20,000 nucleotides of DNA from an uncultured virus (IMG/VR IMGVR_UViG_3300020469_000029) (lineage: Duplodnaviria; Heunggongvirae; Uroviricota; Caudoviricetes; Kyanoviridae), in the IMG/VR virus record IMGVR_UViG_3300020469_000029; one strand, given 5' to 3'. Positions 1 to 19,631 of this stretch are shown here, piece after piece. How positions within the stretch are numbered: position 1 is the stretch's first letter; the number at the start of each line of letters is the position of its first letter. The notes under the pieces are model-generated. The model did not search any database. It was not told where the DNA came from and saw nothing but the letters and a program-made list of their open reading frames with translations. Both the position numbers and the translations under genes were made by a program.

Positions 1-2220
1 GCTGACGTTAGCACATTAAATCTTACATCTAACGCTAACATCTCTGGATCTATTATCGTTAACACCAGCAAGTTTATTGTTGCAGGTGCTTCTGGTAATA
101 CTACTATCGATGGTACATTGGATGTTGCTGGTGCAACTACTATAGATGACACTCTTAATGTCACACAAAATGTAGACCTTGATTCTAATCTTAATGTAGA
201 TGGTAATGCTCAGATAGATGGCACACTTACTGTTGATACAACCTCACTATTAAAAGACAGTGTTGTATTACGTGGTGGATCTAAGACTCTGAAACTACAG
301 AATGGTAGCAGCACTGATAAGATCACACTGCACTCCACATCTGGTAACGCAGAGATCACTGGTACTTCAACTCTTGGTACTCTTGACGTAACAAATAACA
401 CTACTATAGGTGGCACACTTGGTGTAACAGGTCAGATCACTGGTAATGTAACTGGTGAGTTAACTGGTAATGCTGCCACTGCATCTCTAATTGACGTTAC
501 TGAGACTGCTTCTTCTAACCTAACTTACTATCCTACTTTCGTTTCTACCACATCTGGTAACACTGAAATAAGGACAGACTCTTCAAACTTACAATACAAT
601 CCATTCTCCAATACTCTTACAGTAACTAACTTTAAGTCAACTACTGACTTTGAGATTCAGGGTAACTTAAACGTTACTGGAGCATTAACATTCTTCCAGT
701 CACAGGTTGGTAGTATTGCTAACCATACTACTGATGCTCTTGCTGAAGGATCAACTAACTTATACTATACAGCAGAGCGTGTAGATGATAGAGTTTCTAA
801 CTTAATCAATGGTGGCACAGGTATTACTGCTACCTATGATGATGCTGGTAATATGCTGACCTTGAGTGCTACTCAGTCAGATCTTAATACTGACAACTTT
901 ACTGAAGGATCAACTAATCTATTTACTACTGCTGTAAGGACAAGGACTCACTTCTCTTATGGCACAGGTATTGAATTATCTGGTGCTGGTGCTCTATCAG
1001 TCACACAGGCAGACATTAATACTGATAACGTAACTGAAGGATCTACAAATCTATTCATAACTGCTGCTAGGACTCGTGGACATTTAAGTGCTAGTGGATC
1101 ATTGGCATACAATGCTTCTACTGGTGACTTCTCATACACAACTCCAACTACTATTGCATCTCTATCCAACCATGATACAGATGATGTAGCAGAAGGATCA
1201 AGCAATAAGTATTATACAGATGAGAGAGTAGATGATAGAGTTAATGCTTTAATCATTGCAGGTACTGGTGTTACTAAGGCATACGATGATGGTGCTAATA
1301 CATATACATTATCTGTTACTCAGGCAGACGTTAATACTGACACAGTAACTGAAGGATCAACAAATCTCTTTACTACTGCTGCTAGAACAAGGACACACTT
1401 TACATATGGCACAGGTATTACACATTCGGGTGGCACACTTTCTGTTACTCAATCTGATATTGACACCGATAACGTCACAGAAGGATCCACAAATCTATTT
1501 ACAACTGCTGCTCGCACTAGAGGACATATAAGTGTCAGTGGATCGTTAGCATACAACAGTGGCACTGGTGTTATTTCATTCACACAACGCACTGATGCTG
1601 AGGTAAATACTCTTGCAGACGCAAGAATTACTGCTGCTGATACTGATGCTTTATCAGAAGGATCATCTAACCTTTACTACACAGATGCTAGAGCAGACGC
1701 ACGTATCGCTGCTGCTGACACAGATAATCTATCTGAAGGATCAACTAACCTTTACTATACTAATGCTAGAGCAGACGCAAGAATTGCTGCTGCTGATACC
1801 GATGATCTATCAGAAGGATCAAGCAATCTTTATCATACAACCGCTAGAGCACGTGCTTCCATAAGTGCTGGTGGAGATCTTGCTTATAACTCCTCTACAG
1901 GTGTGATGAGTGTTACTCTCCCAACTGTATTCTCTGGAGCATATGCTGACCTATCTGGCAAACCTACATTATTCTCTGGTGCATATGCAGATCTGACTGG
2001 CAAACCTACATTATTCTCTGGTGATTATGATGACCTATCTAACAAACCTACATTAGGTAGTGCTGCTGCAACTGCTACAACTGCATACGCTACTGCTGCA
2101 CAAGGTGCAACTGCTGACTCTGCATTACAGGCAGAGACAATTACATTAGCAACCCTTAAGTCTGTTACAGCAGCGTCTGCTGACTTTGCTGACTTCCAGA
2201 CTAGAATCGCTGCTCTATAA
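1..2220 (+). CDS. Repeat-rich fibre/virion structural protein (5' truncated; frame open from base 1)
   Basis: Frame 1 has no stop from 1 to TAA 2218-2220. T/S/G/N-rich; 9x TDxxxEGS[TS]N repeats and 3x FSGxYxDLxxKPT repeats; occupies the wac/fibritin position just upstream of g13. Confidence 0.8.
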   Translation, partial: ADVSTLNLTSNANISGSIIVNTSKFIVAGASGNTTIDGTLDVAGATTIDDTLNVTQNVDLDSNLNVDGNAQIDGTLTVDTTSLLKDSVVLRGGSKTLKLQNGSSTDKITLHSTSGNAEITGTSTLGTLDVTNNTTIGGTLGVTGQITGNVTGELTGNAATASLIDVTETASSNLTYYPTFVSTTSGNTEIRTDSSNLQYNPFSNTLTVTNFKSTTDFEIQGNLNVTGALTFFQSQVGSIANHTTDALAEGSTNLYYTAERVDDRVSNLINGGTGITATYDDAGNMLTLSATQSDLNTDNFTEGSTNLFTTAVRTRTHFSYGTGIELSGAGALSVTQADINTDNVTEGSTNLFITAARTRGHLSASGSLAYNASTGDFSYTTPTTIASLSNHDTDDVAEGSSNKYYTDERVDDRVNALIIAGTGVTKAYDDGANTYTLSVTQADVNTDTVTEGSTNLFTTAARTRTHFTYGTGITHSGGTLSVTQSDIDTDNVTEGSTNLFTTAARTRGHISVSGSLAYNSGTGVISFTQRTDAEVNTLADARITAADTDALSEGSSNLYYTDARADARIAAADTDNLSEGSTNLYYTNARADARIAAADTDDLSEGSSNLYHTTARARASISAGGDLAYNSSTGVMSVTLPTVFSGAYADLSGKPTLFSGAYADLTGKPTLFSGDYDDLSNKPTLGSAAATATTAYATAAQGATADSALQAETITLATLKSVTAASADFADFQTRIAAL
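727..1860 (+). repeat. Nine coding repeats TDxxxEGS(T/S)N(L/K)(Y/F)xTxxR
   Basis: GAAGGATC cores at 745, 904, 1036, 1192, 1351, 1480, 1657, 1735 and 1813. Confidence 0.9.
1930..2055 (+). repeat. 3x 42-bp tandem coding repeat (FSGAYADLSGKPTL)
   Basis: Units start at 1930, 1972 and 2014; the SGxYxDLxNKP motif is typical of phage fibres. Confidence 0.9.
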
Positions 2221-2224
2221 GTAA

Positions 2225-3031
2225 ATGGCAAAACCTAATTCCAAAGCTACTCTAAAAGAATATGCTCTACGCAGGTTAGGTAAACCTGTACTGGAGATCA
2301 ACGTCTCTGATGATCAATGCGATGATGCAATTGATTATACATTACAGAAATTTCAACAGTTTCATTACGATGGTGCTGAGAGAGTCTATTTAAAACACAA
2401 GATAACCCAAGCAGATCTTGATAGGAATCTTGCTGCCAATGATGATACAACTACTTCTACTGCTGGTAACTCTGAGTGGTCAGAGAGGAAGAGTTATATA
2501 GAGATACCACAGCATATACTTTCTGTTGAAGGACTATTCTCCTTTACTGATAAAGGTACCGCAAACATGTTTGATATTAGATATCAAATGCGTTTGAATG
2601 ACTTGTATGACTTTACGTCTACACAGTTTTATCATTACTACATGATACAGCAACATTTGGGATCAATTGATTTCTTATTAGAAGGTTTAAAACCTACTCG
2701 TTATGTTGCTACTCAGGATAGATTATATCTTGATATGGATTGGTCAACAGATGTCCAACTTGATACCTATATTGTTATTAAAGCATGGAGAGCACTAGAT
2801 CCTCTCACATGGACAGAGATATATGATTGTATGTGGGTCAAAGATTATACTGCTGCTAAGATTAAGAAGCAGTGGGGTAGTAATATGACTAAATTCCAAA
2901 ACGTCCAGATGCCAGGTGGTGTCACGTTAAATGGAGAAATGATTTACAACGATGCGGTGCAAGAGATTAAAGATCTTGAAGAGCAACTGCGTACAGAATG
3001 GGAAACTCCACCTCTAGACATGATAGGATAA
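2225..3031 (+). CDS. g13: Neck protein gp13
   Basis: YALRRLGKPVLEINV, FQQFHYDG and QWGSNMTKFQNVQMPGGVTLNG motifs; synteny. Confidence 0.95.
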   Translation: MAKPNSKATLKEYALRRLGKPVLEINVSDDQCDDAIDYTLQKFQQFHYDGAERVYLKHKITQADLDRNLAANDDTTTSTAGNSEWSERKSYIEIPQHILSVEGLFSFTDKGTANMFDIRYQMRLNDLYDFTSTQFYHYYMIQQHLGSIDFLLEGLKPTRYVATQDRLYLDMDWSTDVQLDTYIVIKAWRALDPLTWTEIYDCMWVKDYTAAKIKKQWGSNMTKFQNVQMPGGVTLNGEMIYNDAVQEIKDLEEQLRTEWETPPLDMIG

Positions 3032-3032
3032 C

Positions 3033-3908
3033 ATGGCTACTAACACTTATTTCTCTCAAGGTACTACAGGTGAGCAAGACTTAACACAGAGTCTTGTTAA
3101 CGAGCAGATTAAGATGTTCGGTAAAGATGTATACTATATCCCTAGGACTTTAGTAAAACAAGATACGGTCTTCGGTGAAGATACGATGTCAAAGTTTGAG
3201 GGTGCATATTTAATCGAAGCTTTTATCGAAGACAACTCAGGATTCAGAGGAGATGGTGACATGTTCTCCAAGTTTGGTGTACAAATTGCTGACCAAGCAA
3301 CCTTTGTTATATCAAGGACTCGTTTCACTGAGGCAGTTGACGATAATGCAACACTAATTGTAGAGGGTAGACCAAATGAAGGCGATCTCGTATACTTCCC
3401 TATGGCAAATAAGATCTTTGAGATCCAGTTTGTCGAATATGAAGTACCATTTTTCACGTTGGGTAAAATCTATACATGGGGATTACGATGTGAACTCTTC
3501 CAGTACAGCGACGAAGACATCGACACTGGAATCACAGAGGTTGATGCAATTGAGGTCAACTATGCCAATGCAATAAGTGTTAACGTTGCTGAAGGTGGCA
3601 GTGGAGACTTTGTTGCTGAGGAGATTATTACAGGTGGTAACACTAATGTAACTGCTACAGTTAAATCTTGGAATAGTGCCACACGTCAGTTGGTTTTATA
3701 TAATAGATCTGGTATCTTTGCTATACCTGAGACACTTACAGGTAATACATCTAGTGCTGCGTGGACAAGTGCTACATATAATACCCTAAATAATACGAAT
3801 GATGACTCTCAGTCCAACTTCGTTATCGAAACGCAGTCGGATGCTATCATTGATTTCACTGAAGGTAATCCTTTTGGTGAGTTTGGAAATAAAGGAAGTA
3901 GTATCTAA
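3033..3908 (+). CDS. g14: Neck protein gp14
   Basis: EQIKMFGKDVYYIPR, FSKFG, RPNEGDLVYFP and DFTEGNPFG motifs; follows g13. Confidence 0.95.
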   Translation: MATNTYFSQGTTGEQDLTQSLVNEQIKMFGKDVYYIPRTLVKQDTVFGEDTMSKFEGAYLIEAFIEDNSGFRGDGDMFSKFGVQIADQATFVISRTRFTEAVDDNATLIVEGRPNEGDLVYFPMANKIFEIQFVEYEVPFFTLGKIYTWGLRCELFQYSDEDIDTGITEVDAIEVNYANAISVNVAEGGSGDFVAEEIITGGNTNVTATVKSWNSATRQLVLYNRSGIFAIPETLTGNTSSAAWTSATYNTLNNTNDDSQSNFVIETQSDAIIDFTEGNPFGEFGNKGSSI

Positions 3909-4711
3909 TGTTAGGAACGTATTCATACCACGAAATTATTAAGAAGACAGTTGTTGCTTTTGGTACATTGTTCAATAATATTGAACTAAAACGTGTAGCA
4001 TCAGGAAAAACAGAGGTCATGAAAGTGCCTTTAGCATATGGTCCTCGTCAGAAATTCTTGCAGAGATTAAATCAGGTAGGTCTTAATAAGACTAGTGTCC
4101 AGATTACTCTTCCTAGAATCTCTTTTGAGATACAAGGGTTTGCATATGATGCAACTAGAAAGGTATCTCCTACTCAATACATTAGAAACACACAAGCTGA
4201 TGGTAAAGAGTTTAAATCTTTCATGCCAATACCATATAATTTGAATTTTGAATTGTCAATCATGGCAAAGAATCAAGACGATGGTCTTCAGATTCTTGAG
4301 CAGATACTCCCAGTCTTCCAACCTAGTTTTAATATTACATTAAATTTAGTATCAACTTTAGCTGAGAAGAGGGACTATCCAGTCACTTTAACTTCTATTG
4401 ATTATGAGGATGTGTATGAAGGTGACTACGATACTCGTAGGACATTGGTATATACATTACAATTTGTTGCTAAGACTTACCTATACGGTCCTGTCCAAGA
4501 CAAGTCTGGTGAGGTTATTAAGAAGGCAATTATTGACTACTCTACTAAGACTGAGTTAGCACCTAATGCACCACGTGAAGTTAGATATCAGGTCACACCA
4601 GATCCAGTCACTGCTGATGCAGATGACAATTTTGGATTTAATGAATTGACAAGTGAGTTTGTTGATTCTCAGCAATGGAACCCAACCACAGGACAAGATG
4701 AAACAGTTTGA
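3908..4711 (+). CDS. g15: Tail sheath stabiliser/terminator gp15
   Basis: FGTLFNNI, KVPLAYGP, LPRISFEI, QILEQILPVFQP and YLYGP motifs; TAATG coupling to g14. Confidence 0.95.
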   Translation: MLGTYSYHEIIKKTVVAFGTLFNNIELKRVASGKTEVMKVPLAYGPRQKFLQRLNQVGLNKTSVQITLPRISFEIQGFAYDATRKVSPTQYIRNTQADGKEFKSFMPIPYNLNFELSIMAKNQDDGLQILEQILPVFQPSFNITLNLVSTLAEKRDYPVTLTSIDYEDVYEGDYDTRRTLVYTLQFVAKTYLYGPVQDKSGEVIKKAIIDYSTKTELAPNAPREVRYQVTPDPVTADADDNFGFNELTSEFVDSQQWNPTTGQDETV

Positions 4712-5108
4712 TGGGATCGAAGAAGCTCTGGACGTTGAAACATCTATTGTTCCTAAAAAGGAGCCTAAGATGGAAATTGTACCAACGACGACTACGGAGC
4801 AACTCAAGAAAGACTATGACTACACGAGGGGCAACCTCTACTCGCTTATTGAAAAAGGTCAGGAAGCGGTGGACGGTATCCTCGAAGTGGCTCAGAGCTC
4901 TGATCAACCAAGGGCGTATGAAGTAGCAGCAACTACAATTAAAGCAGTTGCTGATGTTGCTGATAAACTTGCTGATCTTCATAAAAAAGTTGGTGAGATA
5001 GAAAATCCAAAAGGAACTATCGCAGATAAACAAGTTACTAACAACACCATGTTTGTTGGTAGCACAGCAGAACTTGCTAAATTTCTAAAACAAAAGCAAG
5101 ATAAATAA
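4698..5108 (+). CDS. g16: Terminase small subunit gp16 (probable start ATG 4698, MKQFDGIEEAL)
   Basis: DYDYTRGNLYSLIEKG, PRAYEVA and NNTMFVGSTAELAKFL motifs; AGGA upstream of 4698. Confidence 0.92.
   Translation: MKQFDGIEEALDVETSIVPKKEPKMEIVPTTTTEQLKKDYDYTRGNLYSLIEKGQEAVDGILEVAQSSDQPRAYEVAATTIKAVADVADKLADLHKKVGEIENPKGTIADKQVTNNTMFVGSTAELAKFLKQKQDK
5101..5107 (+). promoter_or_regulatory. T4-type late promoter (ATAAATA)
   Basis: gATAAATAa overlapping the g16 stop, 23 nt before the next ATG. Confidence 0.75.
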
Positions 5109-5130
5109 CATAGTAAAGGTAACTTAAACC

Positions 5131-5667
5131 ATGTCGGTATTAAATGTAATTGACACACAGACAATCAGTGCATCTGGTACTGGCTATATTGTAGTCAAGT
5201 CTGGTGTAATAAGAGTCTATAGTGCAAGTGCATCTACCATCAAGATTGATGCTGGACCTGCAATCACACTTGCAGCAGCAACACCTGAGTTGATCTCAGT
5301 TGGCAAACCAAAATCATCAAGAATTAAAGCAGCAACTGATGCTGCTGCTATGGTAGTAACCGTTGATCACGGTGGCACACCAGCACACACTTTTGCAGTA
5401 GGAGATTATGTCGCTACTGTTGATGGTGGTGATACTGATGGATTTGTTGCAGCGTTTGAAACTGCTGCCTCTGCTGGAAAAAAAGTAACTGCAATCTCAG
5501 ATACTACTATCACAACTGACTACGATTCATCTTCTGCCTCTGCTGACTATGCAGTGTCTTCTGCTGATGTCATTGCTGGTACACTCCCACAAATACAGAA
5601 AGCAGTCTTGCTTACTGCTGGTGGTGCTGATGTAGTAGTAGAGCAAGTCCAAATTGTAGGTGGCTAA
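5131..5667 (+). CDS. Hypothetical beta-rich protein, probable virion structural component
   Basis: 178 aa, A/S/T/V/G-rich, directly behind a late promoter. Confidence 0.75.
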   Translation: MSVLNVIDTQTISASGTGYIVVKSGVIRVYSASASTIKIDAGPAITLAAATPELISVGKPKSSRIKAATDAAAMVVTVDHGGTPAHTFAVGDYVATVDGGDTDGFVAAFETAASAGKKVTAISDTTITTDYDSSSASADYAVSSADVIAGTLPQIQKAVLLTAGGADVVVEQVQIVGG

Positions 5668-5668
5668 C

Positions 5669-7411
5669 GTGTCAAACCCTAAAGGTAAATCTGCAGCTCA
5701 TCGATCCTTCTCTAAGAAGAAGAATCCTGCTATTGATAGACTTAATACTAGACAACATACTAGTGTTGGTTTAGCAGCAGAAGCAAGAGTTGCTAATTCT
5801 GATAGAGGTCTTACAGCAGTTGCTAGTGTAGGTCGCCAAGCGAAAGCAGGTAACGTAAACCGTAAAGGTAAATCAGTTACTGGTGGTGCAGCTATGGGTG
5901 GTATGAATATCCGTGGTGCTGGCGGTATTGGAAAGTCTAAACCAAAAAACGTTGAGACTATTAATAAAAAGTATAAGAAACAAGTTTCTTCTGACAGAAA
6001 AGCAGCTGCTAAGGAGAGAGCATCCATGAGGTCTAAAGGTATGAAGTATGAAACCGTACAGTCTTTCGGACAATTCTTAGAAAAGACTTGTTGGAAAGGT
6101 TACAAGCGTAAACCTGGTACCAAGAAGTTTGCACCTGGCTCTTGTGTAAAAGAGGAAGGGTATGATAGAATGAGGGATGACCGTTTAGTGAAGTATGGTG
6201 CTGGTGGTAACAGTAAACCTTCAGTTAGTCGTGCACCTAAGACAAACGCAAAAGGTAAAACCAATTTCCAAAAACAAGCTGAGAAAGAGCATGGTAAGGG
6301 TGTAACCGCACTTGATATTGTTAAAAAAAACATTGAAAAGAAACACGGTAAAGGAGCTATTATGAAAAATGAAGAAGTAATCAGTGAGTTATCATCTGAT
6401 ACCTTACAAAAAGCATCTAAGGCTGCTGACATAGACCGTGGTAAGAAAGCGGTTGCTGGCGATAAGGAAGGTGCTAAGAAGAGAGTTAAGCAAGCATCTC
6501 GTTTCTTTAAAGCTGCATCTTCAAAGCGTAAGGAAGAAGCAAAAGAAGGTACTGCATATGGTATTACCAAAGGAGATGGTAAGGCAAAAGGTGTGATGAA
6601 AGATTATCTTGATAAGAAAGCAAAGAAATTATCAGACGAAAAGAAAAAACAAAAACCTGAATATAAAAATAATCCTGCATTTGGTGATGCATCACATCAT
6701 TCAAATGCTAAGAGCAAGAATGAAGAGTATACAGTTACCAATGCTGACAAGAAAGGTAACACACCTGCATACCAAGGTTACAAAGCTGGTAAGAAAAATG
6801 CTAAGACGGGCAAACCTCTATACAAAGCTGCTGATCATATGAAAGAGGATGGGACAAGACCTCACCCAGATGGACAGTGGGAGTATCATGAGAAGGAAGG
6901 TCTAAGGACATTCAAGGATTTCGTGCAAGAAGGTAACCCTACTACTCGTATGTTGAGTAAGTCTAAGTCACAACAAACTGGAAACATTAGTGCTGATAGG
7001 GGTACAGACGCAAAAAAGAATAAAGAGTCCCGTAAGGGGCTCGAAAAAGACCTAAAGAAGAAAGGTATCGGATACAAGAAAGGTACTGGTGAATATAAAT
7101 ATGATGATGGATCAAAGGGACGTGAAGTTTCGTATCAAACATCACCTGCAAAGGGTATGAGTAAGAGACGTTTTGGTAAAACAATGCGTCGTCTAGGTAG
7201 GAAGCATGGACAAGAGTCTGTTATTACTAAGGACAAAAACAAACCAGCACGTTTACATGACACTGAGTCTAAGAAACCAGGTAAGTCAGTAAACATAGGT
7301 AAGTCTAAACCTGGTAAGCATCCTTCTGGTCAGGGAGAAACTTCTGGCACTAAGGTCAGAGGTAAGAAATTATCTAAGACAACCAATAAACCAAGTTATC
7401 ACTATGGCTGA
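5669..7411 (+). CDS. Lys-rich modular protein, putative capsid-internal polyprotein with C-terminal SAM-lyase-like domain (start GTG 5660 or 5669)
   Basis: ~580-aa open frame, very K-rich. Internal VQSFGQFLE and LRTFKDFVQE motifs; CWKGY..CVKEE module; C-terminal ISADR..N..R..GxY..E..GQESVI pattern. Confidence 0.7.
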   Translation: MSNPKGKSAAHRSFSKKKNPAIDRLNTRQHTSVGLAAEARVANSDRGLTAVASVGRQAKAGNVNRKGKSVTGGAAMGGMNIRGAGGIGKSKPKNVETINKKYKKQVSSDRKAAAKERASMRSKGMKYETVQSFGQFLEKTCWKGYKRKPGTKKFAPGSCVKEEGYDRMRDDRLVKYGAGGNSKPSVSRAPKTNAKGKTNFQKQAEKEHGKGVTALDIVKKNIEKKHGKGAIMKNEEVISELSSDTLQKASKAADIDRGKKAVAGDKEGAKKRVKQASRFFKAASSKRKEEAKEGTAYGITKGDGKAKGVMKDYLDKKAKKLSDEKKKQKPEYKNNPAFGDASHHSNAKSKNEEYTVTNADKKGNTPAYQGYKAGKKNAKTGKPLYKAADHMKEDGTRPHPDGQWEYHEKEGLRTFKDFVQEGNPTTRMLSKSKSQQTGNISADRGTDAKKNKESRKGLEKDLKKKGIGYKKGTGEYKYDDGSKGREVSYQTSPAKGMSKRRFGKTMRRLGRKHGQESVITKDKNKPARLHDTESKKPGKSVNIGKSKPGKHPSGQGETSGTKVRGKKLSKTTNKPSYHYG

Positions 7412-7523: not shown

Positions 7524-7763
7524 ATGCCACCATTACATATGAGAGAACAATTATTACGTGCTGTATTAGCACATGCACAGGGTGAAATTGAAAAGCATAA
7601 GGTAAATGTTAATGTTTATCTTGAGCATCCTGTAGGTATCGGAGAGCACTCTGATATTACTGAAGCAATTCAAGGTGAGTTGGACAAGATTGCTAGATAC
7701 CAAGATCAAGTGGAAGTTATTAATAAATATTTCAGAGGACCATCGCAGAATCTTAACGGGTGA
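7524..7763 (+). CDS. Hypothetical helical protein (start 7524 or 7539)
   Basis: 79-aa ORF with a PVGIGEHSDI loop between two predicted helices; tight gene packing. Confidence 0.8.
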   Translation: MPPLHMREQLLRAVLAHAQGEIEKHKVNVNVYLEHPVGIGEHSDITEAIQGELDKIARYQDQVEVINKYFRGPSQNLNG

Positions 7764-7935: not shown

Positions 7936-8103
7936 ATGCCCCAGACTAAGTATACCGTGGGATACCACGATGCAGCATTAAATCATTATGAGATATGTGA
8001 GTATGCGATAGACGCATATGAAGCAATTCAACACAGCAAGGAGGATGTCCCTGAATTAGGGGAGCATCCTCATTTTATTGACTATGCGACGGTGGAAAGA
8101 TGA
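7936..8103 (+). CDS. 55-aa His/Tyr/acidic hypothetical protein
   Basis: Manual translation MPQTKYTVGYHDAALNHYEICEYAIDAYEAIQHSKEDVPELGEHPHFIDYATVER; ATGA overlap with the next ORF. Confidence 0.75.
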   Translation: MPQTKYTVGYHDAALNHYEICEYAIDAYEAIQHSKEDVPELGEHPHFIDYATVER

Positions 8104-8213: not shown

Positions 8214-8386
8214 TGGTTGTTTGGGGTGTGATCTGGATGGTCGCAATTCTTCTCGTAATCGTGAGTTGGTATATCTACTATATACTAAAGATGGCTTATG
8301 CGGAGATGAATGATGGGAAAGATGACCCCACCAAGCAGGAAGAGTTGTTACAACTTCCGAGTAACAGAGATAACGAAAGTAGTTGA
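8213..8386 (+). CDS. 57-aa single-TM membrane protein
   Basis: Hydrophobic helix MVVWGVIWMVAILLVIVSWYIYYIL; ATG 8213 overlaps the previous TAA; 3' end overlaps the nuclease gene. Confidence 0.65.
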   Translation: MVVWGVIWMVAILLVIVSWYIYYILKMAYAEMNDGKDDPTKQEELLQLPSNRDNESS

Positions 8387-8882
8387 TGGAGATACCATTG
8401 ACGTAGTAATAGATTTAGGATTTGATATCTATAAGCACGAACGTGTACGTATAGCTGGTATCGATACTCCTGAGAAGAGGACAAGAGATTTAGAAGAGAA
8501 GGCATTGGGTATAGACGCAACTAACTGGATGAAGTATACTCTTGAGGATACTATTAATGGAGAGCATGAACTCACTATTAGAACAGAACTTAAGGGTGGC
8601 ATGGGGAAGTATGGTAGGCTTCTTGGTTGGCTCTATGTTGGCGACTCTACTGTTTCATTAAATGAGCAGATGATAGAAGAGGGATATGCATGGGAGTATG
8701 ATGGTGGCACTAAGAATAAAAACTTTGAAGAGTTAAGAGAGATTCGTATTGCACAAGGTACTCTTGAACCTGAAGAGGGTGATCCATTACCTGAGAATGG
8801 TACAGGAATTGAGGCAGCAGCAGATGCTCCTGAATATAATACACCTCTGAATAGTACCAGTAACATGGCGGGGTTATACTAA
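8310..8882 (+). CDS. Thermonuclease (staphylococcal nuclease-like) family protein
   Basis: KVVDGDTIDV, RVRIAGIDTPE, GKYGRLLG and LNEQMIEEGYA motifs; GGAG RBS at 8302-8305. Confidence 0.92.
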   Translation: MMGKMTPPSRKSCYNFRVTEITKVVDGDTIDVVIDLGFDIYKHERVRIAGIDTPEKRTRDLEEKALGIDATNWMKYTLEDTINGEHELTIRTELKGGMGKYGRLLGWLYVGDSTVSLNEQMIEEGYAWEYDGGTKNKNFEELREIRIAQGTLEPEEGDPLPENGTGIEAAADAPEYNTPLNSTSNMAGLY

Positions 8883-9091
8883 TGGTAGGACCTGGAGAAT
8901 ACATAGCAATGTTAAATGTCGTAGAGGCATGGAATGAAATCAGTTGGGCTGATGCTATTCCATTTACTCTAGTATTAATAGGTCTTTACTGGGTTAAGGT
9001 AAAGATAGATGCATCTGTTGGTATCAGTAAGAAACAGCAGAAGCAGTTGAAGAGAACTATTGTAGAGGCAATTAAAGAAGCCAATGCCTGA
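8882..9091 (+). CDS. Small single-TM protein (start 8882 or 8909)
   Basis: AIPFTLVLIGLYWV hydrophobic segment followed by a basic tail; coupled to both neighbours. Confidence 0.7.
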   Translation: MVGPGEYIAMLNVVEAWNEISWADAIPFTLVLIGLYWVKVKIDASVGISKKQQKQLKRTIVEAIKEANA

Positions 9092-10742
9092 GAAGCAGGA
9101 GATATATCTAGGTAACCCCAATCTCAAACGGGCTAACGTTAACACTAGTTTCTCACCTGAAGAGGTGCAGGAGTTTATAAAGTGTAGTCAAGATCCCGTT
9201 TATTTTATTCGTAATTATATTAAGATTGTTAACCTAGATGAAGGTATAGTTAACTTTGACCTCTATGATTTTCAAGAGGACATGGTTAATCGTTTTCATG
9301 AACACAGATTTAATATAGCAAAGTTACCACGTCAGTCTGGTAAGTCCACAGTAGTTACTGCATACCTTTTGTGGTATGCAATCTTTAATGATAATGTCAA
9401 CATCGCAATCCTCGCAAACAAAGCAGCCACTGCAAGAGAAATGTTGGGAAGGTTACAACTTTCTTACGAAAATCTCCCTAAATGGCTTCAACAAGGTGTG
9501 GTCAACTGGAACAGGGGCTCCTTGGAGTTGGAGAATGGAAGTAAGATCTTGGCTGCTTCTACTTCTGCAAGTGCTGTACGGGGTATGTCCTTTAACATTA
9601 TATTTCTGGACGAATTCGCCTTTATTCCGACGCATATTGCTGATGAGTTCTTTAGTAGTGTCTACCCTACTATATCTTCTGGTAAGAAAACTAAGGTTAT
9701 AATCATATCTACCCCCAAGGGTATGAATATGTTCTATAAACTGTGGCATGATGCGGAGAAAGGACAGAATGAATACACTACAACGGAGGTGCATTGGCAA
9801 CAGGTACCAGGTAGAGATCAGGTATGGAAAGAGCAGACGATTAAAAACACGTCCGAGGAGCAATTCAACCAAGAGTTTGAGTGTGAATTCCTAGGATCTG
9901 TTAATACTCTTATCAGTAGTACTAAATTAAAGACATTAGTATATGAAGAACCTAAGAGGAAGGAAGCAGGACTGTCTATATACGATGATCCAGAGGAAGG
10001 ACACTCATATCACATCTGTGTTGACGTTGCCAGAGGTCTAACTAAGGATTATTCTGCATTTACAGTGATAGATACTACAGAAATACCCTATCAGGTGGTA
10101 GGAAAGTATAGAAACAATACAATTAAACCTCTTTTATTCCCAGATATCATTCATAAGGTTGCTACGGCATACAATCAGGCGTATATAATGATAGAAGTTA
10201 ATGATATTGGTGGACAGGTAGCAGATATCATACAATTTGATCTAGAATATGAGAATTTACTCATGTGTGCCATGAGAGGTAGAGCTGGTCAGGTAGTAGG
10301 ACAAGGATTTAGTGGCACTAAGGTGCAACTTGGAGTCAAAATGAGCACAACAGTTAAGAAAACTGGTTGCTCTAACCTTAAACAGTTAATTGAAGATGAT
10401 AAACTAATCTTTAGAGACTATGACATCATGGCAGAGTTAACTACCTTCATTCAGAAAGGTCCAGCATGGCAAGGAGAGGAAGGATGTAACGATGACCTTG
10501 CTATGTGTCTGGTTATCTTTGCATGGTTAGCAACTACTGACTATTTCCGTGAGTTACATGACGATGATGTACGTGCAAAGATGTATGAAGAGCAGAAAGA
10601 GGGAATAGAAGCGGACATGGCTCCATTTGGTTTCATAGATAACCACGTGGACTATGAGCAGACTATAGTGGATGATGAAGGCACTCAGTGGAATGTAGAT
10701 GAGTATGGAGATAACTCACACATGTGGGAATATCTGTCGTGA
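9084..10742 (+). CDS. g17: Terminase large subunit gp17
   Basis: YLGNPNLK; Walker A PRQSGKST; Walker B IIFLDEFAF; ISTPKG; nuclease motifs VDVARG and NDDLAM. Confidence 0.97.
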   Translation: MPEKQEIYLGNPNLKRANVNTSFSPEEVQEFIKCSQDPVYFIRNYIKIVNLDEGIVNFDLYDFQEDMVNRFHEHRFNIAKLPRQSGKSTVVTAYLLWYAIFNDNVNIAILANKAATAREMLGRLQLSYENLPKWLQQGVVNWNRGSLELENGSKILAASTSASAVRGMSFNIIFLDEFAFIPTHIADEFFSSVYPTISSGKKTKVIIISTPKGMNMFYKLWHDAEKGQNEYTTTEVHWQQVPGRDQVWKEQTIKNTSEEQFNQEFECEFLGSVNTLISSTKLKTLVYEEPKRKEAGLSIYDDPEEGHSYHICVDVARGLTKDYSAFTVIDTTEIPYQVVGKYRNNTIKPLLFPDIIHKVATAYNQAYIMIEVNDIGGQVADIIQFDLEYENLLMCAMRGRAGQVVGQGFSGTKVQLGVKMSTTVKKTGCSNLKQLIEDDKLIFRDYDIMAELTTFIQKGPAWQGEEGCNDDLAMCLVIFAWLATTDYFRELHDDDVRAKMYEEQKEGIEADMAPFGFIDNHVDYEQTIVDDEGTQWNVDEYGDNSHMWEYLS

Positions 10743-10975
10743 GTATAGAGTCAGACCTAGAACTTGAGCATTTATTATTTGTTGAAAGGAAGTGTAGGTT
10801 TTGTGGTAAGATAAAGAATTTATTAGAAGATTTTTATTTAACTAGAAAGGATAGAGGTGCAACTCCATCAGCATATGCATATGAGTGTAAGTCCTGTACC
10901 ATCTGGAGAGTCAACAGAAAGAGAAATAGAAAGAGACCTTTGCCTCCATACCTAGCAGACTATCCAGACTGGTAA
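10739..10975 (+). CDS. Zn-ribbon protein (CxxC...CxxC); probable start GTG 10739
   Basis: RKCRFCGKIKNLLEDFY...YECKSC; GTGA overlap with the g17 stop. Confidence 0.75.
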   Translation: MSIESDLELEHLLFVERKCRFCGKIKNLLEDFYLTRKDRGATPSAYAYECKSCTIWRVNRKRNRKRPLPPYLADYPDW

Positions 10976-16242: not shown

Positions 16243-16506
16243 ATGCCTACTGATGTCGCAAGAGATATAGTAAATGCTCTTTTTGCAGGACAGAAAGATC
16301 TGTCCGATTATGTTGTTCAGGGTATGAACGCAAAATCAGTCGAAGCAATTGACGCTAAGAAGCAAGAGATGGGGAAGGTTTTATTTAAACCACAGGAAGA
16401 CGGTCCTGAAAACACCGAGCAACCTGCGGATGCTGAACCACCTGAAGCTTCAACTGAAACAGAAACCGAGGAACCTAAAGATGAAACTGATCAGGGAAGA
16501 GATTGA
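16243..16506 (+). CDS. Small acidic protein, probable prohead core protein (gp67/gp68 position)
   Basis: 87 aa with an E/P/T-rich tail, between g20 and g21; function by synteny only. Confidence 0.65.
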   Translation: MPTDVARDIVNALFAGQKDLSDYVVQGMNAKSVEAIDAKKQEMGKVLFKPQEDGPENTEQPADAEPPEASTETETEEPKDETDQGRD

Positions 16507-17128
16507 GACCGCCAAAGTAACTATCACTGAAGGTAAGAATGGTAAGAAAAACCATTTTATTGAAGGTGTATTCTTGCAAGGTGAGATCAAGAACCGTAAT
16601 GGTCGGATGTATCCATTAGCTACCTTACAAAGAGAAGCTGCAAGTTACAATCAAAAGTATATTGAGAAAGGACGTGCACTAGGAGAATTGGGTCATCCCG
16701 ATGGTCCTACTATCAACCTAGATAGAGTGTCACATCTTATCACCTCTCTTAAGCAAGAGGGTACTAATTATGTTGGTAAGGCAAGACTATTGGATACACC
16801 AATGGGTAACATTGCCAAGAATCTCATTGATGAGGGTGTCAAGTTGGGAGTTTCATCCCGTGGACTTGGTACTATAAGAGAAAGAGATGGTGTTAAAGTT
16901 GTCATGGATGACTTTATGCTCGCAACTGCTGCTGATATAGTAGCAGACCCTTCCGCACCAGATGCTTTTGTCAATGGAATCATGGAAGGAAAGGAATGGA
17001 TCTACAATAGTGGGGCAATTCAGGAGCAAACAGTGGAGCAAATCAAGAAAAGAATTGATAATGCTGCGCTAAATCAAATGGAAGAGGTAAAACTTTCCGC
17101 ATTTAATCAGTATTTACAGCAATTGTAA
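16481..17128 (+). CDS. g21: Prohead core protease gp21 (start ATG 16481, MKLIREE)
   Basis: NRNGRMY, ALGELGHP, GVSSRGLG and DIVADPSAPDAF motifs; GAGGA upstream of 16481. Confidence 0.96.
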   Translation: MKLIREEIETAKVTITEGKNGKKNHFIEGVFLQGEIKNRNGRMYPLATLQREAASYNQKYIEKGRALGELGHPDGPTINLDRVSHLITSLKQEGTNYVGKARLLDTPMGNIAKNLIDEGVKLGVSSRGLGTIRERDGVKVVMDDFMLATAADIVADPSAPDAFVNGIMEGKEWIYNSGAIQEQTVEQIKKRIDNAALNQMEEVKLSAFNQYLQQL

Positions 17129-17184: not shown

Positions 17185-18228
17185 ATGTCAGAAGAGAATA
17201 CTAAAACTCTGGATGAATCAAGTGTAACCGCAGGAGCAAAACCAGCAGAACCCCAAGGTAAACTTGGAGCAGATGGTAGTAGTCTCGGTGGAGTACAAGA
17301 TTTAGGTGGACCTACACCTTTCAATTCTAAACCAGATGACGATAGTAACAAGTATAAAACTATCGCTGGTGGAAATGCCCAAGCACCTACAACTAAACCA
17401 AGTGATGCTTCCGCATCTACTCAAACGTTTAGTGACAAGGGTGATGTCAAAGCAGGACACGAGCCAGAAGGCGACGTGATTGCTGAAACCCCTGCTGAAG
17501 AAAGCGTCATAGAAGTAGATTTATCTGCTGACGTTGCTGCACTTACTGAAGGTGAGAACCTATCAGAAGAATTCAAAGAGAAAGCAAAGACTATCTTTGA
17601 AGCTGCGGTAGTTTCTAAGCTAAACGAAGAACTAGACCGAATGCATGAAGACTATGCAAAGGCACTAGACACAGAAATTGAGACAGTTAAAACTGAACTC
17701 GCTGAGAAAGTTGACGACTATCTTACCTATGCTGTTGAATCTTGGATGAAGAAGAATTCTCTCCAAGTTGAAAGCGGTATTAAGGCAGAGATGGGAGAGC
17801 AAGTTCTTGCTGGTCTCAAACAAGTTTTTGTCGAGAATTACATTGATCTTCCCGACGAAAAAGTTGACCTTGTAGATGGTCTACAAGAGCAACTCAATAC
17901 TATGGAATCGAAACTCAACGAATCAATTGAAGAAAACGTTGGACTGTCTAAGGCAGTTGGCGGCTATATTAAGAATGGGATTGTGACAGAGATTGCAGAG
18001 GGCTTAAGTCTCTCTCAAAAGGAGAAACTTGTTTCTCTCGCAGAAGCTGTTGAGTTTGAAAATGAAGATGCTTTTAAAGCAAAGGTATCTACTTTACGTG
18101 AATCCTACTTTTCTACAAAGCCTGAGAAGACTACGGTCTCTGAGGATGTCCAAGTAGAAAACGCTCCCGAAGCAGGTAGTTCTATGGATGCATATTCACA
18201 GGCTATTGCTAGATGGGCAAACAAATAA
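17185..18228 (+). CDS. g22: Prohead core scaffold protein gp22
   Basis: LSEEFKEKAKTIFEAAV, KVDDYLTYAVESW and TLRESYF motifs; acidic coiled coil between g21 and g23. Confidence 0.95.
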   Translation: MSEENTKTLDESSVTAGAKPAEPQGKLGADGSSLGGVQDLGGPTPFNSKPDDDSNKYKTIAGGNAQAPTTKPSDASASTQTFSDKGDVKAGHEPEGDVIAETPAEESVIEVDLSADVAALTEGENLSEEFKEKAKTIFEAAVVSKLNEELDRMHEDYAKALDTEIETVKTELAEKVDDYLTYAVESWMKKNSLQVESGIKAEMGEQVLAGLKQVFVENYIDLPDEKVDLVDGLQEQLNTMESKLNESIEENVGLSKAVGGYIKNGIVTEIAEGLSLSQKEKLVSLAEAVEFENEDAFKAKVSTLRESYFSTKPEKTTVSEDVQVENAPEAGSSMDAYSQAIARWANK

Positions 18229-18263: not shown

Positions 18264-19631
18264 ATGTTTAACGCAGAATCACTCCAAGAGAAGTGGAACC
18301 CTATTCTTGAGCATTCAGAGCTCGATCCTATTAAGGATACCTATAGAAAAGCGGTTACCTCAGTCCTCTTGGAAAACCAAGAAAAATTTCTGAAAGAAGA
18401 GCGTGGTCTCGTAACTGAAGCAGCACCTACCAACTCACTTGGTGGTACTGGATATTCAGGCGGTAGCACAGCTACAGGTCCTGTTGCAGGTTTCGACCCA
18501 GTTCTTATTTCACTTATCCGTCGTAGTATGCCTAAGCTTATTGCTTATGACATATGCGGAGTTCAACCAATGACAGGTCCTACTGGACTTATCTTTGCGA
18601 TGAGATCCACGAAGGGTACAAACAGAGACATCAACAACAGTGCAGTTGAGACATTCTTCAACGAAGTTGACTCTGAGCATTCATCTGAGAACAGTGCTAA
18701 TGGTTTAGCATCTAATACTCAGACTGGATCAAACCCAGGTCTACTTGCTGACGGTGCTGGAAACTACACCATCGGTGGTCAGGGTATGACTACTGCTCAG
18801 TCTGAAGCATTAGGCGACGCAGCTAACAACCACTTCAACGAGATGGGATTCTCGATTGAGAAGGTTACTGTTACTGCTAAGTCACGTGCTTTGAAAGCTG
18901 AGTACAGTTTAGAGCTTGCTCAAGACCTTAAGGCTGTGCATGGATTGGACGCTGAGTCTGAGCTTGCAAACATCCTATCAACAGAAGTCCTTGCTGAAAT
19001 CAACAGGGAAGTTGTTAGAACTGTTTACAAGATCGCTAGACCTGGTGCTCAAAACAATACAGCTACTGCTGGTACTTTCGACCTTGACGTTGATAGTAAT
19101 GGTAGATGGTCAGTTGAGAAATTCAAAGGATTACTCTTCCAGATCGAAAGAGATATGAATGCCATCGGGCATGAAACTCGTCGTGGGAAGGGCAACATTC
19201 TCATCTGCTCTGCTGATGTAGCATCTGCTCTCTCAATGGCTGGAGTCCTTGACTATTCATCAGGCATCAACGGTGCTGTAGGTGGACTAGGACAAGTTGA
19301 TGACAACTCATCTACTCTAGTTGGAACTCTTAACGGAAGAATCAAGGTCTATGTTGACCCTTACTCTGCAAACGTAAGTGACAATCACTTCTATGTTTCT
19401 GGATACAAAGGATCATCTGCATACGATGCTGGATTATTCTACTGCCCTTACGTGCCTCTACAAATGGTCAGAGCCGTAGGTCAGGACACCTTCCAACCAA
19501 AAATCGGGTTTAAAACTCGTTACGGAATGGTTGCTAACCCATTTGCTGAAGGTCTTACACAAGGTGTAGGTGCTCTCACAGCTAATGCTAACCGCTACTA
19601 CAGAAGGGTCAAGGTAACAAACCTAATGTAA
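18264..19631 (+). CDS. g23: Major capsid protein gp23
   Basis: LIAYDICGVQPMTGPTGLIFAMR, SRALKAEYSLELAQDLKAVHGLDAE, FYCPYVPL and FQPKIGFKTRYG motifs. Confidence 0.99.
   Translation: MFNAESLQEKWNPILEHSELDPIKDTYRKAVTSVLLENQEKFLKEERGLVTEAAPTNSLGGTGYSGGSTATGPVAGFDPVLISLIRRSMPKLIAYDICGVQPMTGPTGLIFAMRSTKGTNRDINNSAVETFFNEVDSEHSSENSANGLASNTQTGSNPGLLADGAGNYTIGGQGMTTAQSEALGDAANNHFNEMGFSIEKVTVTAKSRALKAEYSLELAQDLKAVHGLDAESELANILSTEVLAEINREVVRTVYKIARPGAQNNTATAGTFDLDVDSNGRWSVEKFKGLLFQIERDMNAIGHETRRGKGNILICSADVASALSMAGVLDYSSGINGAVGGLGQVDDNSSTLVGTLNGRIKVYVDPYSANVSDNHFYVSGYKGSSAYDAGLFYCPYVPLQMVRAVGQDTFQPKIGFKTRYGMVANPFAEGLTQGVGALTANANRYYRRVKVTNLM

Follow-up and report, generated by a model that had tools for sequence, protein, structure and literature searches.

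Introduction

To date the capsid-targeting sequence (CTS) of bacteriophage T4 has been described in coliphages, where it tags proteins at their N-terminus. The internal proteins IPII and IPIII open with MKTYQEFIAE↓A and IPI opens with MKTFKEF (here and below the arrow marks an actual or predicted cut), and within this leader positions 4 and 7 act in targeting and positions 8 and 10 in processing (PMC9026906, partial text). Several L/I-x-E sites are cut in each of the T4 core proteins gp22, gp67 and gp68, and the packaged enzyme Alt has its propeptides removed by gp21 (PMC9026906, partial text). The cargo behind the leader is basic, as in the protein described here, which has no sequence similarity to the mature internal proteins.

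The SAM lyase (SAMase) of phage T3, gp0.3, is produced only once the DNA has entered. It is the product of the first early gene, and structures are available for it (7OCK, 8BB1) as well as for Svi3-3 (6ZM9, 6ZNB). In the T4-like cyanophage S-CREM2 gp6, annotated as ‘SAM hydrolase (virion protein)’, was detected in purified virions by mass spectrometry with 19 peptides and 26.3% coverage, and the authors suggested that a SAM hydrolase entering together with the DNA might offer protection from restriction (PMC10665884, partial text). In the part of that paper available to us neither a CTS nor cleavage is mentioned for gp6, and a text search for ‘internal’ came back empty. Here we describe a mosaic cyanophage gene in which a predicted SAM lyase lies directly behind a T4-type leader.

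Results

A basic mosaic reading frame in the head gene block

The window, that is the whole stretch of 20,000 nucleotides under analysis, is from an uncultured member of the Kyanoviridae. Positions 5660–7411 of its plus strand form one uninterrupted open frame, which lies in the head/neck gene block of a T4-like cyanomyovirus (Table 1). There are two candidate starts: GTG 5660 gives a protein of 583 aa and aligns with MPAV... of homologues, and GTG 5669, the choice of the initial annotation, gives 580 aa, has AGGTGG upstream at 5656–5661 and is also the start of a near-identical database protein (P0004). All residue numbers used here are counted from GTG 5660. The product is 18.9% lysine and 11.3% glycine, with a pI of 10.2 and a net charge of +82. 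Late expression is likely given the position of the gene and the overlap of its start with the 3' end of the upstream structural-block gene. Where 1.2 matches were expected, a late-promoter scan for TATAAATA gave two, and one of these lies within the mosaic ORF itself.

Table 1. Features of the mosaic ORF and of the head genes in the same window. Nucleotide positions are those of the window; residues are those of the mosaic ORF.
Feature	Position (nt)	Strand	Residues (aa)	Basis or remark
Mosaic Lys-rich ORF	5660..7411	+		T4-GC110 / phrog_26015 family; between gp16 and gp17
N-terminal leader, ends LAAE↓A	5660..5782	+	1–41	boundary from the other contexts of the next module
Module N (GNVNRKG..., basic)	5783..6055	+	42–132	mostly predicted disordered; single helix 98–125
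First CTS-like motif, VQSFGQFLE	6056..6082	+	133–141	F at 4 and 7, L at 8, Glu at 9
Cys mini-module Z (CWKGYKRKPGTKKFAPGSC), ends VKE↓E	6083..6154	+	142–165	18 distinct contexts
Module A (E-GYDRMRDD...KGAIMKNEE)	6155..6376	+	166–239	homology, context counts
VISE↓L junction and module S (LSSDTLQK...)	6377..6547	+	240–296	helical hairpin, pLDDT about 81–85
Module B (G-TAYGITKGDGK...SKNEE)	6548..6727	+	297–356	homology; stand-alone forms P0183, P0185
Module C (YTVTNADKKGNTPAYQGYKAGKK...HMKE)	6728..6847	+	357–396	homology, context counts
Spacer (DGTRPHPDGQWEYHEKEG)	6848..6901	+	397–414	predicted disordered
Second CTS-like motif, LRTFKDFVQE	6902..6931	+	415–424	predicted cut after E424
Predicted T3-type SAM lyase domain	6932..7408	+	425–583	fold, PF23780, signature G477, Y479, E489, Q518, E519
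gp21 prohead protease (Peptidase_S77), presumed processing enzyme	16481..17128	+		profile match
gp22 scaffold (T4_CASP; pI 4.3), presumed core joined by CTS-bearing proteins	17185..18228	+		profile match; binding presumed
gp23 major capsid protein	18264..19631	+		LVTE52↓A homologous to T4 Glu65↓Ala66 cut
Glu motif LAAE↓A	5771..5785	+	38–42	first of eight named
Glu motif VQSFGQFLE↓K	E ends at 6082	+	133–142	named Glu motif
Glu motif CVKEE↓G		+	162–167	named Glu motif
Glu motif VISE↓L		+	240–244	named Glu motif
Glu motif AKE↓G		+	294–297	named Glu motif
Glu motif KNEE↓Y		+	353–357	named Glu motif
Glu motif MKE↓D		+	394–397	named Glu motif
Glu motif LRTFKDFVQE↓G	6902..6931 plus G	+	415–425	named Glu motif

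As Table 1 shows, the head protease, scaffold and major capsid protein are encoded in the same window. The initial annotation saw one cleavage pattern shared by LVTE↓A of gp23, LDE↓S of gp22 and IRE↓E of gp21. All three motifs are present, and FLTE65↓A of T4 gp23 aligns with LVTE52↓A of the window's protein; for gp21, however, it is EIE↓T, one turn past IRE↓E, that aligns with the T4 site LIE↓T.

The C-terminal domain is a predicted SAM lyase

In the AF2 model of aa 424–583 (pLDDT 86.4, pTM 0.79), residues 425–583 are a confidently folded T3-type SAM lyase domain, a predicted enzyme. T3 SAMase is described as having nine antiparallel strands in a barrel-like sheet, and two outer helices; the model also has nine strands, with three helices, and shares with T3 gp0.3 and Svi3-3 the fold and the residues G-x-Y, E and Q-[DE]. 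VIA-align placed it closest to T3 SAM lyase 8bb1_E (Z 13.7, rmsd 2.8, 129 of 147 residues aligned, model residues 10–160), followed by 7ock_A (13.5) and Svi3-3 (8.1 and 7.3), with the next unrelated folds at 6.8 or below. SAM lyases were also all of the top five Foldseek hits.

Family profiles point the same way. PF23780 matches 10 of 10 aligned family members (best E 1.3e-8), and its match to the isolated domain is marginal: the gathering score is 28, the isolated domain reaches 28.2 bits, and the full-length protein stays below it at 25.4. A stand-alone relative (L048) matches phrog_2226 at 3e-11; this is the PHROG family of the RefSeq-annotated T3 gene 0.3, assigned by name. When nine sequences, T3 SAMase among them, were aligned, G477, Y479, E489 and Q518 proved invariant and correspond to T3 G55, Y57, E68 and Q94, with E519 aligned to T3 D95, a mapping made from the MAFFT alignment and topology. 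Across 40 sequences each signature residue reaches a conservation of 90% or more. These positions correspond to residues that Guo et al. list as substrate-binding, G56, Y58, E69, Q104 and E105 of Svi3-3 and E68 of T3 (PMC7877911, partial text).

The domain is small (17.5 kDa) and basic (pI about 10.4), and only about 11–15% identical to the T3 and Svi3-3 enzymes. Searching PDB sequences with a profile of one family alignment gave chance-level matches only (E 0.17), hhalign of a second alignment against the T3 SAMase sequence a probability of 0.2, and BLASTP of L048 against T3 SAMase an E value of 5.4. Since these direct searches were null, the link to SAM lyases is made by Pfam, the PHROG family, the fold and the multiple alignment together. 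The initial annotation had proposed a cassette of peptides whose products are injected or condense DNA. DNA condensation does not describe the largest cargo, for which the fold comparisons and invariant residues indicate an enzyme; with a folded enzyme domain as its constant module, the ORF was not accepted as a pure condensing-peptide cassette.

A T4-type leader directly precedes the domain

The second CTS-like motif matches MKTYQEFIAE↓A of T4 at positions 4, 7, 8 and 10 (F418, F421, V422 and E424) and is followed by a small residue, in keeping with the pattern [LM]-[KR]-T-[FY]-x-[DE]-F-[IV]-x-E↓[AG]. The first is one residue short (FLE, where homologues have FLDE or FVKE), so that its Glu stands at 9 and not at 10. 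The earlier proposal of internal, duplicated CTS-like motifs is thus upheld at all four mapped positions for the second copy, but for the first at positions 4, 7 and 8 only, with the Glu shifted. Counterparts of the first motif in homologues read YESFLDFVKE(E)↓ and LKSFSGFLDE↓, and five different modules come after them. Among the other ORFs of at least 40 aa on the 49.6-kb contig no CTS-like motif was found.

The second motif stands immediately before GNPTTR in 123 of 123 first-round homologues. Over the distinct contexts of this junction (module D) P1 is Glu in 77 of 77 and P3 is L, I, V, M or F in 76 of 77. T4 carries its CTS at the N-terminus, whereas in the mosaic ORF both copies are internal. 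The N-terminal arrangement does occur in stand-alone cyanophage homologues, where the motif is at the extreme N-terminus: M[KR][TS][FY]x[EQD]F opens the gene in 14 fetched proteins and at about 28 of 44 viral-contig loci, as in MKTYQEFMQE↓SSLSR, which is identical to the T4 CTS at 8 of 10 residues. These stand-alone loci lie in T4-like cyanophage contexts (gp13–15, psbA, gp44/45). A complex prediction of gp22 (aa 100–347) with ORF residues 385–424, made without controls, scored 0.00, which speaks neither for nor against binding.

Shuffled modules meet at conserved glutamates

The region upstream of the enzyme, aa 1–424, is mostly predicted to be disordered: its pLDDT averages 55, and 212 of its 424 residues score under 50. 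It is built of modules that recur elsewhere, and at least 35 module orders were counted among 150 proteins with the C-terminal domain, which bears out the expectation that modules are shuffled between phages. The module that follows the leader (ARxxxAD...) opens other proteins as M-ARNTKAD (P0014, P0020, P0045, P0046) and is elsewhere preceded by LATE↓ or KIKE↓; module Z sits elsewhere in the homologue from P-RSM6; and module A recurs C-terminally in other proteins and also alone, as MINEE-GYD.... Relatives of module C about 80% identical to it include Syn19 gp185 and an S-SCSM1 protein annotated ‘virion protein’, a label that comes from the GenBank record only, since ORF89 is listed in the S-SCSM1 supplement without mass-spectrometry data. 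A Pfam scan of 30 module-carrying proteins found families in four only: two had DUF6321 (one also DUF192), unrelated to the modules, and the other two PF23780 only. The ESM Atlas returned for aa 163–400 only unnamed viral clusters, with scores of at most 0.80. A split-gene form was sought in S-WAM1, where the gene proved to be a single one of 472 aa.

The initial annotation had drawn the module boundaries at eight Glu-ending motifs. All eight were recovered within the single ORF, whichever start is taken (5660/5669–7411), and the refuting condition set by the initial annotation, module boundaries in homologues that miss the Glu sites, did not hold when checked: all eight lay on boundaries defined independently by homology, with homology segments beginning or stopping at aa 161–165, 242–246, 295, 350–355, 397 and 411. 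For modules A, S and D the junction Glu is retained, exactly at the module boundary, in every distinct upstream context examined (51/51, 11/11 and 77/77), and LAAE↓A also falls on such a boundary. Upstream of module A the residues read [ILVAF]-x-E-E in all 51 distinct contexts, and at the module S junction P1 is Glu and P3 is L, I or V in 11 of 11. Modules B and C conserve the Glu alone, without a hydrophobic P3: E↓G lies four residues ahead of the YG anchor of module B in 41 of 43 contexts, and Glu is at P2 of module C in 40 of 50, with aa 397 the end of 28 homology segments. Three junctions only, VKE↓E, ISE↓L and VQE↓G, show the hydrophobic P3 that the L/I-x-E rule calls for.

The description of these as repeated gp21-type cleavage sites did not survive a count, the number of hydrophobic-x-E sites in the ORF being at chance level in 2000 shuffles: one [LI]xE site was observed against 1.8 expected, three [LIV]xE against 3.2, and eight [LIVMFA]xE against 7.4. 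Unlike the count, position and conservation exceed chance. Among 120 near homologues there are 153 instances of the CTS-like pattern [FYW]xxF[ILVM]x0-3E, whereas 200 shuffles gave 1.3 on average and 4 at most. This excess measures conservation and not independent events, since the homologues are mutually related.

Virion evidence from relatives

S-CREM2 gp6 starts with MKDFDSFLEE and is 35.6% identical across aa 74–169 of the domain. It resembles the present protein in its homologous domain and N-terminal leader, but its enzyme domain is N-terminal and followed by a 250-aa tail, and its gene lies elsewhere in the genome, adjoining a methylase and a restriction-endonuclease gene. In S-SZBM1 the 707-aa homologue S-SZBM1_194, which carries ITYREFIAE↓GNRTAR, is missing from the 30-protein virion proteome (PMC9146016 Table 1, partial text), and its small upstream neighbour S-SZBM1_195 is the third most abundant virion protein (PMC9146016, partial text). 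According to the same source just 24 of the 32 structural proteins predicted were detected, and S-SZBM1_194 may have been hidden by its content of about 25% K+R, which gives short tryptic peptides. A tblastn search with the domain found nothing in S-SM1, S-PM2 or Syn9 (34 records listed). Virion proteomes of these three phages were reportedly described by Sullivan in 2010; given the tblastn result they are uninformative here.

Discussion

The features of the locus that can be observed are an enzyme fold with its signature residues, identity to the T4 CTS, an N-terminal motif in stand-alone homologues, and module shuffling with Glu at the junctions. Because the predicted enzyme lies directly behind a T4-type head-loading leader, it probably travels inside the virion and is injected alongside the DNA. 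As a full account of the mosaic ORF we favour a late head-internal protein that is addressed by its CTS, cut by gp21 and delivers a SAM lyase with the DNA, a reading to which we would give about an even chance. The protein would be made together with the structural genes and would use its CTS helices to enter the scaffolding core, perhaps helped by the attraction of the basic modules to acidic gp22. A gp21 cut after E424 would then free the 17.5-kDa basic enzyme. Further cuts after E165 and E243 are probable, those at the other Glu junctions less certain. On entering the host with the DNA the enzyme would destroy SAM ahead of any phage gene expression, and this loss would, by analogy with T3 gp0.3 and T4 IPI, weaken SAM-dependent restriction along with other defences. 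The basic and largely disordered modules upstream may be exchangeable cargo or filler using the same address. Counting against this account are the missing S-SZBM1_194, the chance number of sites, the internal position of a CTS that is N-terminal in T4, and the short first motif.

It is conceivable, though in our judgement unlikely, that only one cut matters and that the 424-residue upstream region, both CTS-like helices included, is a basic propeptide that aids binding of the enzyme to the acidic scaffold and is then chopped and expelled in the manner of T4 gp22, gp67 and gp68, its modules being filler that is not delivered. The low model confidence and disorder of this region would suit such a role, as would its freely variable content and order beside a cD end that 145 of 150 proteins keep unchanged, the sufficiency of an extension of about 50 aa in many cyanophages, the acidic pI of gp22 (4.3) against 10.1 for aa 1–423, and the departure of T4 core-protein fragments from the head after cutting (PMC9026906, partial text). 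Filler would not, however, be expected to look like modules A, B and C, which are about 60–80% identical across many unrelated proteins and also occur as stand-alone genes, as if each had its own function; the annotation of S-SCSM1 module-C proteins as virion proteins points in the same direction. Intact packaging and delivery, with the Glu-rich junctions as flexible linkers or recombination-tolerant joints, seems to us quite improbable. It would accommodate the chance count of cut sites, the location of junctions at helix ends or in linker-like stretches of low pLDDT, and the misfit of the B and C junctions to L/I-x-E. Yet a hydrophobic P3 accompanies modules A, S and D (51/51, 11/11 and 76/77 contexts); a linker does not need this residue and the T4 protease rule requires it, so its conservation counts against delivery intact, as does the homologous cut site kept in the window's own gp23.

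Nor do we think it likely that the protein stays out of the head altogether, as a cytoplasmic SAM lyase made late or constitutively, with a disordered, basic, nucleic-acid-binding N-terminal region and a motif that is simply a conserved N-terminal helix of this subfamily, resembling the T4 CTS by ancestry or chance. The proteome of S-SZBM1 would fit, T3 SAMase is an early, non-virion protein (PMC8406200, partial text), and in our data set the motif is always joined to this one domain. Similar motifs nevertheless precede GYDRMRDD, GDYHSGQG, ASNPEG, KTCWKG and AKGGSA, the likeness to the T4 leader reaches 8 of 10 residues in stand-alone forms, and S-CREM2 gp6 is found in virions. The gene, moreover, sits inside a head/neck/packaging block with its start overlapping a structural-block gene, and the AF2 fold begins beyond the motif, its first helix being model residues 4–14 (aa 427–437).

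The favoured reading, a head-internal protein that delivers a SAM lyase, sets the ORF apart from each of its known counterparts. The T4 internal proteins lack a recognisable enzyme joined to a chain of shuffled modules, and packaging and cutting are here deduced by comparison with them. T3 gp0.3 is an early protein without a CTS, whereas the present domain, whose activity is predicted, is very basic, follows a CTS and is encoded in a late structural block. None of T4 Alt, gp22, gp67 and gp68 is an independently shuffled module chain, and the junctions of the mosaic ORF fit the cleavage rule only partly. A virion-associated SAM hydrolase is already known from S-CREM2 (PMC10665884, partial text); a literature search combining ‘capsid targeting’ with SAM lyase, SAMase, SAM hydrolase or cyanophages found no paper.

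A broader and more tentative proposal, which we regard as possible but doubtful, is that the head protease of T4-like cyanophages is a true polyprotein processor. One late gene would string together swappable basic cargo and an anti-restriction enzyme, each labelled by Glu and sharing one or two CTS helices as an address, and phages could exchange injected payloads, cassette by cassette, by recombining at the labels. If the favoured reading is true, phages of the most abundant marine phototrophs would possess a pre-loaded version of the T3-type SAM lyase counter-defence, active before any phage gene. The T4 capsid-targeting leader would also be an internal, duplicable and portable address, and the head protease would double as a polyprotein processor. 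This would offer a handle on the long-open role of T4-type internal proteins and a natural tag toolkit for loading proteins into phage heads.

Genomic context of the ORF

The window belongs to a T4-like cyanomyovirus and spans the gene block for its neck, packaging, tail and head. Encoded there, all on the + strand, are gp13, gp14, gp15, gp16, a DUF7243 protein, the ORF, small ORFs, an SNase-like nuclease, gp17, gp18, gp19, gp20, gp21, gp22 and gp23. Among cultured phages, the nearest relatives infect Prochlorococcus and Synechococcus; P-RSM6 and P-TIM40, for example, share approximately 76–77% DNA identity with the window, over 35% of its length in the first case and 11% in the second. The ORF protein (pI 10.2, 18.9% lysine) belongs to a cluster named T4-GC 110 in P-SSM4 and S-SSM5, the genes of which lie invariably 3′ of gp16 and the T4-GC 403 (DUF7243) gene. 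In S-SZBM1 the gene at the position of the DUF7243 gene (_195, 87 aa) encodes the protein with the third-highest emPAI in a published virion proteome table.

Coordinates of the ORF and of other features in the window
Feature	Coordinates	Remarks
ORF	5660 or 5669–7411	start GTG 5660 or GTG 5669; residues numbered from 5660
DUF7243 / phrog_682 / T4-GC403 protein	5131–5667	178 aa, pI 4.5; invariably between gp16 and ORF; stop overlaps ORF start
Giant structural protein, C-terminal part	1–2220	phrog_697; numerous TEGSTNLFTTAARTR-like repeat copies and three tandem ...YADL(S/T)GKPTLFSG units
Small ORF	7524–7763	phrog_1811; between ORF and gp17
Small ORF	7936–8103	phrog_8866; between ORF and gp17
Small ORF	8882–9091	phrog_9048; between ORF and gp17
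Staphylococcal-nuclease-like gene	8310–8882	two genes 5′ of gp17
Endonuclease VII-like small gene	10724–10975	directly 3′ of gp17
Very acidic 87-aa ORF	16243–16506	DUF7216, phrog_683; between portal and protease genes, the position of T4 prohead core genes 67 and 68

A predicted SAM lyase forms the constant C-terminal module

Structural modelling, family profiles and a multiple alignment identify the constant C-terminal module of the ORF as an enzyme, a predicted SAM lyase. The fold of residues 424–583 was predicted with confidence (pLDDT 86.4, pTM 0.79, alignment of 40 sequences), and the best five Foldseek matches of the model in the PDB were T3 SAM lyase and Svi3-3. VIA-align gave Z-scores of 13.7 (rmsd 2.8, 129/147 residues) and 13.5 to T3 SAM lyase across the whole domain, 8.1 and 7.3 to Svi3-3, and at most 6.8 to generic ferredoxin-like folds. 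Sequence-only comparisons of the domain family to T3 SAMase returned no significant match. Pfam PF23780 is matched by 10/10 family members, the isolated domain of the window scoring marginally (28.2 against a cut-off of 28) and the full-length protein below it (25.4), and a stand-alone relative matches phrog_2226 (3e-11), whose name resembles the one that RefSeq gives to T3 gene 0.3. In a nine-sequence alignment that reaches T3 SAMase through the bridging S-CREM2/L048 subfamily (L048 being a stand-alone relative), G477, Y479, E489 and Q518 share invariant columns with T3 G55, Y57, E68 and Q94. In Svi3-3 the corresponding conserved residues, which Guo et al. (PMC7877911) describe as binding the substrate, are G56, Y58, E69, Q104 and E105, and the same authors equate T3 E68 with E69.

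A capsid-targeting-like motif precedes the enzyme

Judged by sequence, the motif preceding the domain has the form of a T4 capsid-targeting sequence (CTS): LRTFKDFVQE|G in the window compares with MKTYQEFIAE|A at the start of T4 IPII and IPIII and with MKTFKEF at the start of IPI. A review of Black's work (PMC9026906, section 2.6) assigns targeting to CTS positions 4 and 7 and processing to positions 8 and 10, and the window motif agrees at all four. The motif precedes the domain in 123/123 first-round homologues; of 77 distinct upstream contexts, all have Glu at P1 and 76 have L/I/V/M/F at P3. The most telling pointer to a CTS comes from stand-alone domain genes in T4-like cyanophage neighbourhoods that begin with the motif (14 fetched proteins and about 28/44 viral-contig loci), for example MKTYQEFMQE|SSLSR and MKTYQEFMLECSQLDE|GG. 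The cut sites of T4 are also kept in the window's gp23 (LVTE|A, homologous to Glu65|Ala66) and gp21 (LIE|T, as EIE|T).

Shuffled modules in the upstream 424 residues

Comparison with homologues shows that the region upstream is a cassette of shuffled modules. A library-wide HMMER search split the ORF into independently occurring pieces (approximately residues 3–125, 163–237, 292–353, 354–398 and 411–583), and anchor motifs revealed 35 module orders among 150 domain-bearing proteins, such as ABCcD vs BACcD and KABcD vs KBACcD (c, CTS-like motif; D, lyase domain), with cD at the protein end in 145. The window order is N-c-Z-A-S-B-C-c-D. The first CTS-like motif, one residue short in the window phage, is followed by five different modules in homologues, and residue 397 is the end point of 28 homology segments.

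The Glu motifs listed in the initial annotation are all present at the positions it reported, and each junction it named coincides with a module boundary in homologues. Module A is directly preceded by [ILVAF]-x-E-E in 51/51 contexts, S by [LIV]-x-E in 11/11 and B by E|G in 41/43; for C, P2 is Glu in 40/50. The sequence after LAAE| starts proteins elsewhere, as M-ARNTKAD. The L/I-x-E rule of T4 holds at the A, S and D junctions only. The sites are notable for their position and conservation and not for their number, which is at chance over 2000 shuffles ([LIV]xE, 3 observed vs 3.2 expected; [LIVMFA]xE, 8 vs 7.4). Some proteins beginning with module B or C (database proteins P0214, P0217, P0183, P0236 and P0255, and contig locus L009:1435-2406) carry a second type of N-terminal leader of approximately 20 residues, such as MGLLKDLQGLNAAYAEVVSKE|A and ...LSEAYSSIYKE|G, in which Glu directly precedes the module; this may be another targeting propeptide.

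Packaging and processing of the ORF product

Virion evidence for the family is mixed. For S-CREM2 gp6, a homologue with N-terminal MKDFDSFLEE, 19 peptides were reported from CsCl-purified virions (PMC10665884, Table 3 and text), and the authors of that study suggested that gp6 could come in together with the phage DNA. An S-SCSM1 protein that its GenBank record labels 'virion protein' contains module C. S-SZBM1_194, a 707-aa homologue with ITYREFIAE|G, is absent from the 30-protein virion table of S-SZBM1 (PMC9146016). Within S-CREM2 2042-7326 the gp6 gene lies near annotated DNA adenine methylase and EcoRI-like restriction endonuclease genes, unusual surroundings for an enzyme that counters restriction.

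Disorder is predicted over most of the upstream region, interrupted by isolated helices (mean pLDDT 55, pTM 0.23). Processing of the upstream modules at several sites is plausible, at odds somewhat below even. There are three rival readings: the upstream modules may be a long propeptide that is expelled, the enzyme may not be packaged, or the product may be delivered intact. Our literature search found no publication joining a CTS to a SAM lyase, or to cyanophages. The most likely reading, to which we give about even chances, is that the ORF encodes a head-internal mosaic precursor, in which the CTS would address the SAM lyase to the head, gp21 would release it by cutting after E424, and the freed enzyme would be injected.
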